Notes: generated by a model from the sequence alone, not told the origin. Shown: positions 1 to 8,791, numbered from the stretch's first letter. The stretch is DNA of 8,791 nt from a virus (IMGVR_UViG_2740892488_000005:1-8791), one strand, 5' to 3'. Translations and numbers: made by a program.

Positions 1-46
1 ACTTGTGATAAATCCGAATGGTTTGGTCGCCGTTCGGGGTAACTGG

Positions 47-68
47 CCCGCCTTGTGCGGGTCTTTTT
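47..68 (+). terminator. Putative rho-independent terminator ending an upstream off-window transcript
   Basis: Hairpin CCCGC (47-51) / loop CTTGT / GCGGG (57-61) followed directly by TCTTTTT (62-68). A TAA at 40-42 could be the stop of a gene entering from the left. Confidence 0.45.
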
Positions 69-127
69 GCTATCTAAAGGGTGCCGGTTACGTTTCCGGC
101 GTCGTTATGTTTCCATTACGACCGTAC

Positions 128-200
128 AGGGCTGGTCAGGCCCGGGCTGGTCTTTCCTGTTTTGAGCTGGTCAGGCTCATGGTCAACGCTGGTCAGGCGT
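128..200 (-). repeat. Tandem array of three stem-loops with conserved 7-nt loop (TGGTCAG on plus, CUGACCA if transcribed leftward) and covarying 4-5 bp stems
   Basis: Loops at 133-139, 168-174 and 190-196. Stems GGGC/GCCC (129-132/140-143), TGAGC/GCTCA (163-167/175-179), ACGC/GCGT (186-189/197-200). Same element occurs inverted at 2191-2205 and 4615-4631. Confidence 0.6.
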
Positions 201-291
201 GGTACTTCCTCCGGTCTTTCCCTGGTGTCACGCTGCGGGTTTGGCCTCTCCTGTTGGGGACTCAGGCACAGCGATAAAACCTGGCTGTGTG

Positions 292-319
292 AAAAAATGG
301 CCCATCGTGCGGACTGGGC
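292..319 (-). terminator. Possible intrinsic terminator on the minus strand
   Basis: On the minus strand GCCCA / 10-nt loop / TGGGC (plus 300-304 pairs with 315-319), then C and a T6 run (plus A-run 292-297). Stem is short, so tentative. Confidence 0.3.
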
Positions 320-764
320 AAAGACTAAACACAGCAAATTGATGATGGGCGCCGGAATCGAACCGGGTAACGGGCAGGGAGTTCCCGTTAAACACCTGTT
401 CACCACAACCGGGAGCGCACTCCGCCATTTCAAAATTTAACGACAAAGCTCAAAGTTGAGTCGATGAAGTGCGCTCTCGTGTTGTAGCCAGGACTCTTCC
501 CTGGTGGTCACACCGTATCGCCTTGATGGTGAATCAATCGCTCATACCTGGCTGTGGCTTGCACATTCCGGCTACCTGCTATGGAGACAACGCGTTAAGG
601 CTCCGCTTCCATCCAGACCGCTTCGACACATGTGCCATATGCCGGTGAAGTCTTTCCCTCTGTCACCGTGTTGGCGCCGACGCGCAAAATTTGGTGCCGT
701 CTTTCCGGCTGTCAGAACGTGTTTCTGAACAACTGCCGCTGGGTAAGCGTTGTTGATGAAAGTG

Positions 765-820
765 ACTTTACAATTTGTATTTGTAATGGTCAATGTGTTT
801 TTAAAAAATAATTTGTAGTG
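765..820. promoter_or_regulatory. OL-like operator cluster downstream of the repressor gene
   Basis: AT-rich block with TTTGTA at 774-779, 780-785 and 812-817; palindrome TACAA-T-TTGTA at 769-779; 9-mer ATTTGTAAT (779-787) also present at 1372-1380 in the repressor/cro intergenic region. Confidence 0.4.
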
Positions 821-911
821 AGGGGCAAAAAAATATTCACTGTGTAAAGGTGTTTTTGTGTTAGGGGAAAGTTGCATGCCAGCAGCGGCTGGCCTGGAAA
901 TTTGAACTGAA

Positions 912-3197: not shown

Positions 3198-4613
3198 ATG
3201 ATAAATAACGCGATTGCACTGTACAGCGTTGACGCAGAACAGGCTGTTCTGGGCTGTCTGATGCTGAATACCGACCACGACAGAACCAATGCGGTATTTG
3301 CGTTACTGAAACCGGAAACGTTTTATATCAATGCGCATCAGGTTATCTACCGGGAGATCAAAGGATTATTTCAAGCTGATAAACCAACTGACCTGATAAC
3401 ACTGACCGAACTGATGGAATCGAAGGGGCTGTATGAGCGCGTGGGGGGATTCGCATACCTGGCTGAAATGAGTAAGGCGGCGATTCCGGCCTCAATGGTC
3501 AACTACGCGAAAATTGTACGTGAAAAAGCCATTCTTCGTTATGCCGTGGAAAAGTTGAATTCTTGTCTGGAGATTATGATCCAGCCTGCAGATATGACTG
3601 CTACTGACAGGATCACCGCCGTTCAGCAAGTGATTGGGCAGGTGGCCGAACATTCCCGTACCGGGCATAAGGGCGGTTTGCGTCCGGCAAGTGAAGTCGT
3701 CGATGACTGGATAGATGACCTTGAGCGCCGTTTCAATGATCCAGCACATGCAGCCGGACTAACGCTCGGAATCGAAAGCCTTGATCGCTTAATGGCACCA
3801 AAGCAGGCGTTAAGAGGTTCATTGGTCGTTATTGGTGCCCGGCCAAAAATGGGCAAGACAGCCGCGTTTAATAAAATTGCGGTGCATTTTGCTCTGAATC
3901 ATCGTTTGCCGACGCTGGTATTTAGCCTGGAAATGACTGACAGAAGTCTCATTGAACGCATGGTTGCGCAGGAAGCAAAGGTCAATTCGGAGATTTTTTA
4001 TCTTGGCCCTAACGATGAATCTGAATTGAGTCTCGCAATAGCAAAGGCGGGGGAGATTGCCGAATCCAACATGATGATTGACAGCACGGCAGGTGTAACC
4101 CTTGCGCATATTGTCGCTGAATGTCGAAAAGTTAAACGGATGCGTGGCTCGGTTGGCCTGGTGGCAATTGACTATTTGACGCTGATGAAGACCGAATCGG
4201 CAGAGCGTAGGGATATTGCGTATGGCGATATCACAACCGGTTTGAAGAACCTGGCAAAAGAGCTGGATTGTGTTGTGGTCCTGCTGACGCAACTCAACCG
4301 AAAGCTTGAAGAACGTGCCGATAAGCGGCCTAACCCGAGCGACAGTAAAGATACCGGGCAGATCGAACAAGATTGCGATGTCTGGATTGGCCTCTATCGT
4401 GATGCTGTTTATAACGAAAATGCCGACCCAAATCTCATGGAAATGTTGCTACGTCTGAACCGCGAAGGACCATCGGGAACAGCCTATGCCCTGATGAAAA
4501 ATGGCTCAGTTATTGATATCAGCGATGAGGAGGTTTATCGCCTTACCAACGACCGCTCAGAAAAAAATAAACGTTATTCCCGTAGCGATAATTCTCGCAC
4601 AAATGAATTTTAA
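3198..4613 (+). CDS. DnaB-family replicative DNA helicase (phage-encoded, P22 gp12-like)
   Basis: Track ORF 3171..4613; preferred start is ATG 3198 with AAGGAAG SD at 3183-3189. DnaB N-terminal motif (SVDAEQAVLGCLML), Walker A (GARPKMGKTA), SLEM motif, and LTQLNRKLEERADKRPNPSDSKDTGQIEQDCDVWIGLYRD matching the DnaB H3/H4 region. Confidence 0.9.
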   Translation: MINNAIALYSVDAEQAVLGCLMLNTDHDRTNAVFALLKPETFYINAHQVIYREIKGLFQADKPTDLITLTELMESKGLYERVGGFAYLAEMSKAAIPASMVNYAKIVREKAILRYAVEKLNSCLEIMIQPADMTATDRITAVQQVIGQVAEHSRTGHKGGLRPASEVVDDWIDDLERRFNDPAHAAGLTLGIESLDRLMAPKQALRGSLVVIGARPKMGKTAAFNKIAVHFALNHRLPTLVFSLEMTDRSLIERMVAQEAKVNSEIFYLGPNDESELSLAIAKAGEIAESNMMIDSTAGVTLAHIVAECRKVKRMRGSVGLVAIDYLTLMKTESAERRDIAYGDITTGLKNLAKELDCVVVLLTQLNRKLEERADKRPNPSDSKDTGQIEQDCDVWIGLYRDAVYNENADPNLMEMLLRLNREGPSGTAYALMKNGSVIDISDEEVYRLTNDRSEKNKRYSRSDNSRTNEF

Positions 4614-4614
4614 C

Positions 4615-4651
4615 CACGCCTGACCAGCGTGAAATAACCGAGGAAAGACCA
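4615..4651 (+). promoter_or_regulatory. Stem-loop plus conserved SD leader cassette (copy B)
   Basis: Directly after the helicase TAA (4611-4613): stem CACGC/GCGTG (4615-4619/4627-4631) with loop CTGACCA (4620-4626), 5-nt spacer, then ACCGAGGAAAGACC (4637-4650) and ATG at 4652. Confidence 0.55.
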
Positions 4652-5062
4652 ATGACCACCACTCCAGGCAAATTAGAGTACCCGTCGGACAAAGGACACA
4701 TAGACGACGGTAAAAACTATCTCGACGTCATTTTGTGGAATATGAACGTCGGGCCACGTGCGCGCACTCGCGCGGTTTTTGTGCCAAGACCTAAAGCAGG
4801 CAATTTTTCAACCCCTGCTAAGCCTGCCCGTCAGGCATCCGTAGCCGCAGCGCCAGCAGTGAAACGTAAGGGCAAAACGCACACCGGGATCGCGATTCGC
4901 AGAAATGGTGAGCGGCAAGTGAAACTCCACGAAACAGCGACAACCTGGTGTGCCTCACCGCATGAAACTTACGACAAGATAACCGGGCAGCGCATTGGCG
5001 CGCCTGGTCGCTGCCGCCTGCTGCTGAGTTCCATCACTCCGATAGCAAAGAAAGGGGCGTGA
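4652..5062 (+). CDS. Hypothetical protein, 136 aa
   Basis: ORF 4652..5062 with the conserved SD leader; enterobacterial-style codon usage (CTG, GCG, CCG rich); no competing ORF on either strand. No family recognised. Confidence 0.6.
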   Translation: MTTTPGKLEYPSDKGHIDDGKNYLDVILWNMNVGPRARTRAVFVPRPKAGNFSTPAKPARQASVAAAPAVKRKGKTHTGIAIRRNGERQVKLHETATTWCASPHETYDKITGQRIGAPGRCRLLLSSITPIAKKGA

Positions 5063-6238: not shown

Positions 6239-6329
6239 ATTGACTTAGAAAAAGTCCGGGGCTATAGTTTCCGCGCAGCCGCAAAATCGGTTGCCGGGAT
6301 TGGCGTCCCGGATATCTAAGTGACGCATA

Positions 6330-6349
6330 GCCGCGTTAGCGGTTTTTTT
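6330..6349 (+). terminator. Putative intrinsic terminator closing the small-gene operon
   Basis: GCCGC (6330-6334) / loop GTTA / GCGG (6339-6342) followed by T7 (6343-6349). Short stem, moderate confidence. Confidence 0.45.
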
Positions 6350-6448
6350 ATGTGTTAGGCACGGCCACATTCGCATTATGGTGGGCTGTGTGGGGGCTTC
6401 TGTGGAAGCGCCGGGTTCACTTAGCCGGTTACGCCAACCCTGCACAGC

Positions 6449-6481
6449 TCACCACCAGATGATTGGCGTCGCTGGTGGTGA
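6449..6481. promoter_or_regulatory. Perfect 10-bp inverted repeat immediately upstream of the antirepressor start
   Basis: TCACCACCAG (6449-6458), 13-nt spacer ATGATTGGCGTCG, CTGGTGGTGA (6472-6481); right arm contains the Chi octamer GCTGGTGG (6471-6478). Antirepressor SD AAGTGAGG at 6495-6502 and ATG at 6511. Confidence 0.4.
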
Positions 6482-8294: not shown

Positions 8295-8420
8295 GAGAGC
8301 TGACTGGGTTATTTCCGAAGAACAACCGATCTCATCTTTTTTGTTATCTGAAGTGGTTTACTGAATTTGGCCACCTGAACAGAGGTGATATGCTCACCTC
8401 AGAACAACACAGGTGCCATA

Positions 8421-8721
8421 ATGAAAAAAAGAAATTTCAGCGCAGAGTTTAAACGCGAATCCGCTCAACTGGTCGTTGACCAGAATTACACCGTGGCAGA
8501 TGCAGCCAGCGCTATGGATGTCGGCCTTTCCACAATGACGCGATGGGTGAAACAATTACGTGATGAGCGGCAGGGAAAACACCAAAAGCCTCCCCTATTA
8601 CCCCGGAACAAATTGAAATCCGTGAGCTCAGGAAAAAGCTACAACGTATTGAAATGGAAAATGAAATATTAAAAAGGCTACCGCGCTCTTGATGTCAGAC
8701 TCCCTGAACAGTTCTCGATAA
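8421..8721 (+). pseudogene. IS3-family transposase OrfA (HTH plus leucine-zipper regulator), apparently frameshifted twice
   Basis: [53 protein letters not shown] in frame 3 (from 8421); expected continuation [27 protein letters not shown] in frame 2 from 8597; expected C-terminus [14 protein letters not shown] in frame 1 ending at TAA 8719-8721. Frame changes coincide with an A4 run (8576-8579) and the A5G slippery-site region (8671-8676). Confidence 0.65.
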
Positions 8722-8791
8722 TCGGGAAACTCAGGGCGCGTTATCCTGTGGCCACTCTCTGCCATGTGTTCGGGGTCCATCGCAGCAGCTA
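8676..8791 (+). CDS. IS3-family transposase OrfB, N-terminal part (3' end beyond the window)
   Basis: Frame 3 open from 8676 to the window end with a typical OrfB N-terminus ([16 protein letters not shown]). Confidence 0.6.

Follow-up and report, generated by a model that had tools for sequence, protein, structure and literature searches.

The DNA analyzed here is a stretch of 8,791 nucleotides (IMGVR_UViG_2740892488_000005:1-8791, referred to here as the window, with positions counted from its first letter) that holds the immunity and early region of an Escherichia coli (ST131-type) prophage, a relative of Pectobacterium phage ZF40 located beside the leuZ tRNA gene. Five copies of the motif TGGTCAG in this window each form the loop of a short hairpin, and comparison with related loci places the hairpin as the 5' half of a predicted translation-initiation cassette of delayed-early genes, present in both divergent operons of ZF40-like phages of the Enterobacterales. 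The sole complementary partner found for the hairpins is an RNA, a predicted small RNA (sRNA) that is convergent to the left operon and would end at about position 68. Our preferred reading, to which we assign a probability of roughly 0.4, is that this sRNA reads the cassettes, acting in cis on the left operon and in trans elsewhere, and that the hairpins serve as recognition loops or decoys for it.

On the + strand the motif lies at 133, 168 and 190, and two more sites, 2195 and 4620, are on the - strand, giving five copies against 0.96 expected, a number reached in 0 of 200 shuffles. All five share the 11-mer GCCTGACCAGC without difference (again 0 of 200 shuffles). Positions 186-203 and 4613-4630 form a perfect inverted match of 18 nt, and 185-199 matches 2192-2206 in inverted orientation over 15 nt. 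The three left sites, the two inverted right sites and the complementary stems are as described in the initial annotation, which had given the inverted identity as 17 nt and the block repeated five times beyond chance as a 10-mer; both prove slightly longer. Read as mRNA, the hairpins are the following.

129-143, - strand: array hairpin copy 1, sense RNA GGGC-CUGACCA-GCCC, stem GGGC/GCCC
163-179, - strand: array hairpin copy 2, sense RNA UGAGC-CUGACCA-GCUCA, stem (T)GAGC/GCTC(A)
186-200, - strand: array hairpin copy 3, sense RNA ACGC-CUGACCA-GCGU, stem ACGC/GCGT (186-203 is the hairpin plus 3 flanking nt)
2190-2206, + strand: right hairpin, stem (A)GCGC/GCGU(U), with one G.U pair
4615-4631, + strand: right hairpin, stem CACGC/GCGUG

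The inverted match of the copy 3 block, 4613-4630, thus holds the hairpin upstream of the gene that starts at 4652.

Within the window the copies differ in the outer 2-3 stem pairs only, and evidence for compensatory change, which had been claimed from the window itself, therefore comes from relatives. We aligned 39 distinct hairpins from relatives in sense orientation and compared them with a partner-shuffle control of 500 shuffles. Paired cells amounted to 89.7% vs 74.4% after shuffling and the covariation score to 0.421 vs 0.151, with neither value reached in any of the 500 shuffles; double changes were seen at all five stem pairs, and shifting the partner by a few columns abolished the pairing signal. 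The hairpins of relatives contain 10 G.U pairs in the sense orientation vs 2 in the antisense orientation, and orthologues at one stem position run through the series G-C, G.U, A-U. In the array hairpins alone the G.U comparison is uninformative, all pairs being Watson-Crick or conflicting single cases. On the covariation and the G.U counts the helix is assigned to the mRNA strand, where it is predicted to form, and the earlier proposal that hairpin orientation follows transcription on either side of the repressor is borne out at the RNA level. The loop, described initially as an invariant heptamer, is invariant among the window's five copies, but among relatives only ACC is fixed. There the loop reads CUAACCA, AUGACCA, GUGACCU, CAGACCA or CUCACCA as well, for a 7-nt consensus N-U-R-A-C-C-W over the 39 hairpins in which ACC alone is invariant and U2 is at least 90% conserved. 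Copy 2 is kept in all clades with the loop CUGACCA or AUGACCA; copy 1 is missing from some near-identical prophages (L029/L032/SE11-type) through a 15-nt indel between GGGCTGGTC repeats. The hairpins are weak (-6.8 to -8.9 kcal/mol), and the predicted fold leaves the Shine-Dalgarno sequence (SD) and ribosome-binding site unpaired.

These features bear on the idea that the motif acts as DNA, as a site for a protein of replication, recombination directionality or repression, or as a hairpin in single-stranded DNA, and on the related idea of a weak intrinsic terminator. The TGGTC/GACCA core is densely repeated in one orientation, and a U run follows the hairpin in some relatives. A dimeric DNA site, however, would keep its palindrome and vary at its center, which is the reverse of the variable palindromic stem and conserved asymmetric center observed here. 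The cores are spaced at 7, 13 and 22-23 bp without helical phasing (counted by hand in array sequences from different clades), the orientation switches with transcription at the immunity region and not at the replication genes, and the G.U asymmetry indicates RNA. As terminators the hairpins are too weak at the energies given above and mostly lack a U tract: spacers of mixed A and U follow them, with a U run in occasional relatives only. Of the readings weighed here, this pair is the most improbable. TGGTC is also a recognition sequence of T7 primase; primase sites of the T7 type were rejected on the same switch of orientation with transcription at the immunity region rather than at the replication genes.

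A host repeat was likewise rejected. Repeat families such as REP, which the initial annotation had named as a possible source of the motif, do not account for it, as a REP/BIME-like element would not be confined to a region found once per genome and always in this prophage. The 11-mer is absent from the 14 kb host flank in L001, where loop-core matches occur at chance level only. The prophage region itself is carried by 473 of the 5426 complete E. coli genomes searched, for the most part of ST131 type, at one copy per genome (median 1, max 2). The Rfam scan proposed at the outset, run on the window and the extended left region, returned no family for the hairpins, and literature searches by exact sequence and by topic yielded nothing relevant to the hairpins or the sRNA.

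The position of the hairpins relative to genes defines the cassette. In order, it comprises a stop codon, a GC stem of 4-5 bp closed by a 7-nt loop, a spacer of 10-20 nt that tends to be A/U-rich and finishes with AACC(G/A)A, the block GAGG(A/C)AAGACC, 0-2 nt and AUG. Both right hairpins directly follow a stop codon and are themselves followed by a common ACCGAGGAAAGACC(N)ATG.

2190-2232, + strand: cassette of the 74-aa gene, with the ydaT-like stop codon at 2188-2190, hairpin at 2190-2206, GAGGAAAGACC at 2218-2228 and ATG at 2230
4611-4654, + strand: cassette of the 136-aa gene, with the dnaB stop codon at 4611-4613, hairpin at 4615-4631, GAGGAAAGACC at 4640-4650 and ATG at 4652

When all gene starts of the prophage were listed, four genes carried the cassette: the 74-aa, 136-aa, 738-aa and xis-like genes. 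The window contains 6 copies of the sequence GGAAAGAC (0.36 expected), each on the strand that is transcribed in its operon (- to the left and + to the right of the repressor). Beyond this prophage, the cassette recurs in 50 viral contigs related to it and in the prophages of eleven genera, where it stands before the same genes and further early ones. Across about 60 related loci it precedes both homologous and non-homologous early genes, always on the sense strand. In ZF40 it is present in both early operons and absent from the late genes, which span 32 kb. Downstream (3') of the SD core the sequence is uniform over unrelated genes and shifts in concert between genera. A group of right-hand copies that seemed to be stemless was discarded as a coding-sequence coincidence inside the exonuclease-like gene. 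The cassette was also inspected by eye as a sigma-70, sigma-54 or sigma-E promoter and rejected for wrong spacing, and a promoter scan gave no promoter in the array.

The three left copies belong to an array between two convergent terminators, 322-296 on the - strand and 45-68 on the + strand. Here SD-like blocks are interleaved with the hairpins and there is no usable start codon. The leader of the transcript from a pL-like promoter lies upstream and contains three further hairpins with GAAAGA or GAAGAG loops before it reaches the terminator.

83-99, - strand: degenerate 'Ha' hairpin GCCGG...CCGGC, its GAAAGA loop broken by an insertion in this clade (from comparison of arrays across clades)
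146-157, - strand: SD-like block AGGAAAGACCAGC without a start codon, GGAAAGAC at 150-157, 11 nt complementary to the sRNA
201-225, - strand: SD-like GGAGGAAG (203-210), then hairpin CCAGG-GAAAGA-CCGG with GGAAAGAC (214-221)
296-322, - strand: intrinsic terminator of the leftward leader RNA (terminator scan), whose stems covary in relatives
492-516, 648-671 and 697-720, - strand: leader hairpins with GAAAGA or GAAGAG loops, each after (C/G)UGAC(A)
765-793, - strand: pL-like promoter TTGACC-17-TAAAGT, sigma-70-like (promoter scan), overlapping operator repeats at 768-787

The leader hairpins show compensatory changes relative to L002 and SPN1S, and G.U pairs on the sense strand in ZF40 and L088. 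Because the array hairpins match the gene-proximal cassettes in register, in loop and even in stems, the left array is best described as a set of tandem cassette copies that lack an open reading frame (ORF). Read on the + strand, the array unit consists of a UCUUUC-loop hairpin, TGTCA, a TGGTCAN-loop hairpin and GGTCTTTCCTC. The number of units varies among relatives: one in Serratia and E. whittamii, two in other clades, a three-hairpin version in this clade and none in ZF40. Units are gained and lost between short direct repeats, and one of them has persisted from Serratia to Escherichia, its stems showing compensatory changes. Mini-ORFs or a leader peptide within the array were considered and rejected, since neither length nor sequence is conserved among relatives. 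A type I-E CRISPR spacer found in E. coli GN03551 and at least one other genome is identical to 182-213 and spans hairpin copy 3 (L003 1510-1541), with a protospacer adjacent motif (PAM) of functional type, ATG, adjoining this protospacer at 179-181.

Such an arrangement could also arise if the cassettes were strong, passive and self-insulating ribosome-binding modules, without a trans factor of their own, that spread and become homogenized by recombination at gene boundaries, with the hairpin freeing the SD, stabilizing processed 5' ends or uncoupling cistrons, and with the array as debris of slippage and duplication. The 94-aa MDIK gene, for example, is inserted upstream of the exonuclease-like gene exactly at the cassette and brings a cassette of its own, and after dnaB non-homologous genes stand behind the same cassette in different relatives. 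The gain and loss of array units between direct repeats, predicted folds that leave the SD free, and the 18 identical nt that copy 3 shares with the 4615 hairpin, a match that suggests gene conversion, all fit this view. Units of comparable kind are known at gene and module boundaries as PeSL cassettes of T4-type phages and as lambdoid 'linker' sequences. Like them, the cassette joins a stem-loop to an expression signal at gene boundaries where genes appear to be inserted and replaced; it differs from PeSL units in carrying a ribosome-binding site instead of an early promoter. To our knowledge no partner RNA has been recognized for PeSL units. Passive spread would leave unexplained why loop bases are invariant amid variable stems, why a unit that lacks an ORF persists from Serratia to Escherichia and changes in a compensatory way, and why complementary loops are conserved in a partner sRNA, and we regard it as unlikely.

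The place of the array also bears on processive antitermination, the first interpretation in the initial annotation, which had likened the hairpins to the boxB elements of nutL and nutR. Under this interpretation either a nut/boxB system with an unrecognized N analogue or a protein-free put-like RNA would allow read-through of the early terminators. As in the lambda nut sites, short sense hairpins with conserved loops and variable stems are present in both early transcripts, their orientation tracking transcription in both operons; the leftward operon must pass the terminator at 322-296 to reach its genes, with no internal promoter given by the scan, and the purine-rich GAAAGA loops of the leader are boxB-like in style. 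The loop here, however, has 7 nt and is not a GNRA-like pentaloop (GAAAA, GAAGA, GACAA). Instead of one promoter-proximal site per operon before the first terminator there are several copies per operon, each linked to an SD and start codon with 10-20 nt between the hairpin and the ribosome-binding site, and the left array comes after the very terminator that would have to be suppressed. The absence of boxA and of an N-like ORF had been reported initially, and our searches agree: boxA (CGCUCUUA-like), sought as YGCTCTTWA with at most 1 mismatch, gave 7 matches vs 6.5 expected, none of them near the hairpins or in the early leaders. The only small ORF after the array (MPTESTLIGSEY...) is not arginine-rich and varies in length; several genomes, this one among them, have it in shortened form or lack it, and it is not conserved. 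No early protein matched a Pfam N family, and the small early proteins matched no Pfam family at all. The put RNAs of HK022 are two-stem structures of ~70 nt (PMC9378689), whereas the elements here are single hairpins of 15-17 nt with no pair of long stems just after pL or pR, and a phage similarity search revealed no similarity to HK022-type phages. We consider antitermination highly improbable. What stands of the initial proposal is a cis-acting RNA element outside any Rfam family; its role as an antitermination site does not, and its fallback, a binding site for a regulator, fits best.

Two side observations concern the leader RNA. Its 3' end (~290-345, - strand) consists of UUGCUGUGUUUAGUCUUUGCCC plus the terminator and closely matches, almost to identity, the conserved 3' domain of RprA, an sRNA of the host; the Rfam RprA score is 36-37 bits, below the threshold of 70, and the block is kept in relatives including ZF40. 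The block might mimic RprA or compete with it. Separately, a structured module of ~170 nt (470-650 with 345-430, both - strand) shows 72-77% identity to sequences in unrelated phages (SPN1S, PAT1, Tyrion, SopranoGao and the P1-like D6 and SJ46), always in unannotated DNA. The module folds better on the - strand, with several G.U pairs, and has no Rfam family. In SPN1S it lies after a TTGACA promoter, with a tRNA-like element and a tRNA-Arg gene downstream; here it is followed by a fragment resembling a tRNA T-arm, for which ARAGORN reported no tRNA and only a weak tRNA-Sec match was obtained. It looks like a leader of phage tRNA operons.

At the far end of the array lies the predicted sRNA, on the strand opposite the left operon.

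1-68, + strand: 3' two-thirds of the predicted sRNA, antisense to the left operon; its 5' part lies left of the window (L001 13926-14000)
1-9, + strand: 3' arm of sRNA hairpin H1
13-38, + strand: sRNA hairpin H2, with hexaloop UUGGUC at 23-28
45-63, + strand: sRNA intrinsic terminator, with a U run to 68 (terminator scan)

The predicted RNA extends for ~125-145 nt between a -10 box and the terminator. The -10 box, ~75 nt left of the window, is mostly TATACT (TGATATAAT in Serratia, TATAAT in ZF40) and persists where the adjacent upstream gene differs; the terminators have UUCG or CUUG loops followed by U runs, and folding z-scores of the region range from -4.9 to -7.7. Counts for the sRNA cover 22 prophage loci whose sequence spans the region. 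A covariance model (R1) built from 12 sequences gave exactly one match per locus in 22 of 22, always antisense to the left operon, including genera outside the building set (Enterobacter, Serratia, Yersinia, Pseudescherichia and Pectobacterium ZF40) as well as Escherichia; it matches window positions 1-70 at 67.9 bits. In the alignment of the 22 loci, paired cells make up 96.5%, and compensatory double changes are seen at 13 of 18 pairs. Three H2 positions are mostly U.G, which would be mismatches on the opposite strand, and U.G pairs are confined to the + strand. Because pairing, compensatory changes and U.G positions fit the + strand alone, a + strand RNA gene at this locus is a well-supported prediction. 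H1 and H2 both end in the hexaloop UUGGUC, the H2 loop being invariant over the loci, and UUGGUCUU(U/G)CCUC lies upstream of them in the sRNA. No Rfam family was found for the sRNA.

The sRNA overlaps the GAGGAAAGACC block upstream of the 106-aa gene, which gives the sar-like arrangement of a convergent promoter and terminator with an RNA over the opposite ribosome-binding region. In ZF40 the sRNA is covered by the 5' extension of the annotated ORF gp08 (L067 4919-5407): its annotated GTG start carries the ORF across the sRNA, and the homologue of the 106-aa gene starts at ATG 5212. In this clade the sRNA has a 19-nt insertion with UUCCAUAGCGUC (sRNA nt 30-41; L001 15707-15718), which over 12 nt is the complement of the region around the ydaT-like start codon and is similar to the corresponding region of the 106-aa gene; this complementarity may be a by-product of local duplication.

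GGU, invariant in the sRNA loops, and ACC, invariant in the cassette loops, are complementary to each other. In addition, sRNA nt 49-63 form a perfect complement of 11-15 nt to the SD-to-AUG segment of all four cassettes in the prophage, and exact-complement matching found no such matches on the antisense strands of the operons. The target search consisted of such matching; a duplex-energy scan with the whole sRNA was uninformative, being swamped by long-loop artefacts. The order of the patches fits antiparallel pairing at two sites, with the anti-SD before the loop in the sRNA and the loop before the SD in the mRNA. Furthermore, cassettes that read GAGGCAAGACC (Y. artesiana, ZF40) go with GGUCUUGCC in the sRNA, and this variant is also present in the array unit of Y. 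artesiana.

From the structure and conservation of hairpin, cassette and sRNA we infer that the sRNA is expressed, that it pairs with the cassettes and that the pairing has a regulatory outcome. The sRNA would present its two UUGGUC hexaloops together with UUGGUCUUUCCUC, the complement of the ribosome-binding site through the AUG. Contact would begin by loop-loop kissing between the hexaloops and the ACC(A)-containing cassette loops, and pairing would then extend over the ribosome-binding site, so that translation is repressed or the cassette-bearing early message is cleaved. The left operon would be controlled in this way in cis, and the remaining cassette genes in trans. The tandem copies and GAAAGA hairpins of the abundant pL leader might serve as extra landing pads; alternatively, the leader copies may act as a decoy, or sponge, that titrates the sRNA once pL is derepressed. 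In its widest form this would amount to post-transcriptional immunity, in which one sRNA reads the ACC-loop and GAGGAAAGACC label of both operons and silences them until the induced pL leader, as a sponge, frees them all; we think this form rather unlikely.

Several observations weigh against a role of the sRNA as reader of the cassettes. Its complementarity to all of them follows automatically from its overlap with one cassette copy and therefore gives no independent evidence of trans action, and the concerted A/C variation could equally reflect gene conversion among repeats. In one genome the change from CUGACCA to AUGACCA before the 136-aa gene is not mirrored in the array; more generally the loop variants AUGACCA and CUAACCA are unmatched in the sRNA and the array, CUAACCA coexisting with an unchanged UUGGUC. 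The predicted sRNA fold hides the UUGGUC part of the anti-SD stretch in the 5' hairpin, and loop-loop contact would offer only ~5 bp to start pairing. As for the array, its stability is no better than that of shuffled sequence on either strand (z -0.6, +0.4); moreover, ZF40 has no array between the terminators, and even prophages that are nearly identical differ in the number of copies, which suggests that the phage may be able to do without the tandem copies.

The uniform sequence 3' of the SD, changing in concert between genera, argues for some trans-acting reader, and that reader could instead be a protein. A phage or host RNA-binding protein might recognize the ACC loop and the AAGACC spacer and jointly repress (as T4 RegA) or activate (as Mu Com) the early genes, with the leader copies titrating it. 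The motif is bipartite and occurs in two arrangements, either the loop CUGACCA with single-stranded GGAAAGACC or single-stranded CUGACA with the loop GAAAGA, and the cassette is confined to early genes, both of which suit such an operator. No candidate RNA-binding protein was found among the small early proteins, however, these being the ones without a Pfam family. CsrA-type recognition, whether as a target or as a sponge, was rejected, since GGA is lost in the GAGGCAAGACC variant. A protein operator would also leave the two invariant, motif-complementary loops of the convergent sRNA unexplained, and we judge it quite unlikely. The sRNA as reader remains our preferred reading.

If it is correct, the system would be a relative of several known ones. 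With P22 sar (immI) and lambda OOP it shares a short, terminator-ended RNA that is convergent to an early operon beside the immunity region, and, as with sar on ant, the sRNA overlaps a ribosome-binding region. It differs from both in that the predicted sRNA has two identical recognition hexaloops and in that the target is repeated upstream of several genes in both operons, which would make trans action possible. P1 c4 and P4 CI (RF01695, RF03163, RF01394) likewise use two short complementary patches, one over the ribosome-binding site, and have extra target copies in the region (a1/b1, seqA/seqC); their RNAs are processed from the same transcript as the target, whereas the sRNA here is on the opposite strand, and the loop and target sequences are unrelated. 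The hairpins and the sRNA match none of their covariance models: the C4, c4-a1b1 and isrK models hit 6262-6459 only, with nothing in 1-330, 2190-2232 or 4611-4654 at E values up to 1-5 except a 14-bit isrK match at chance level. Short loop-loop recognition, and kissing at two sites that include the Shine-Dalgarno sequence, are known from OxyS-fhlA, CopA/CopT and RNAI/RNAII. The proposed contact resembles these in combining loop-loop pairing with a second site over the SD, but it is a prediction, and shorter at ~5 bp per loop. For the possible sponge role, the prophage RNAs AgvB and AsxR of enterohemorrhagic E. coli, anti-sRNA sponges directed against host sRNAs (PMC4104026), offer a parallel in which a phage transcript with multiple copies of a target motif titrates an sRNA; here, in contrast, both partners would be phage-encoded.

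The setting of these elements is common to ZF40 and phage BUCT708. On the leftward side are the int, xis-like, gp157/Gam-like, 738-aa exonuclease-like and 106-aa protein genes, followed by ~1 kb without genes (window 1-911) between the left operon and the repressor. The rightward genes are, in order, cro-like, YdaT/CII-like, 74-aa, O-like, dnaB, 136-aa and then others. Compared with the closest genome (NZ_AP018784.2), the window differs by six 1-nt homopolymer indels only, at 64, 351, 1313, 2369, 2997 and 6669; three of the six disrupt frames (74-aa, O-like and ORF6N), and these indels are most likely assembly errors rather than signs of pseudogenes. ARAGORN found no tRNA in the window. The remaining features are the following.

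912-1304, - strand: helix-turn-helix (HTH) repressor
1674-1695: palindrome TGATTA-N4-TAATCA between the cro-like and ydaT-like genes, which may be an operator for the CII-like YdaT protein
6262-6349, + strand: isrK/c4-a1b1 target hairpins (Rfam, 80 and 53 bits)
6374-6459, + strand: C4 antisense RNA (Rfam, 75 bits)
8385-8791, + strand: start of an IS3-family (IS911-like) orfA, which cuts off the prophage region at the right end of the window

The isrK/c4-a1b1 hairpins and the C4 RNA make up a complete P1-type immI module (6262-6459, + strand) directly upstream of the ORF6N/KilAC antirepressor gene, and this is a second, already known RNA-based immunity layer within the same prophage.

At the least, these results add an sRNA gene that is new and well supported, together with a defined cis element, in DNA that is annotated as blank or with a spurious ORF (ZF40 gp08). 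The cassette with its antisense sRNA is a variation on phage antisense control in which the sRNA itself is previously undescribed and the regulatory role is proposed rather than established. Lambdoid phages are thought to rely on repressor control together with N, Q or put antitermination, and we know of no description in them of an sRNA with a repeated address and a decoy. The system is widespread, occurring in prophages of at least 11 Enterobacterales genera, including those of pandemic E. coli ST131, and it is directly testable in ZF40, a phage already in laboratory use that carries it. If our preferred reading is right, genes for recombination, excision and replication in both divergent operons would have their translation coordinated by one phage sRNA by way of a repeated address sequence, with a built-in decoy.

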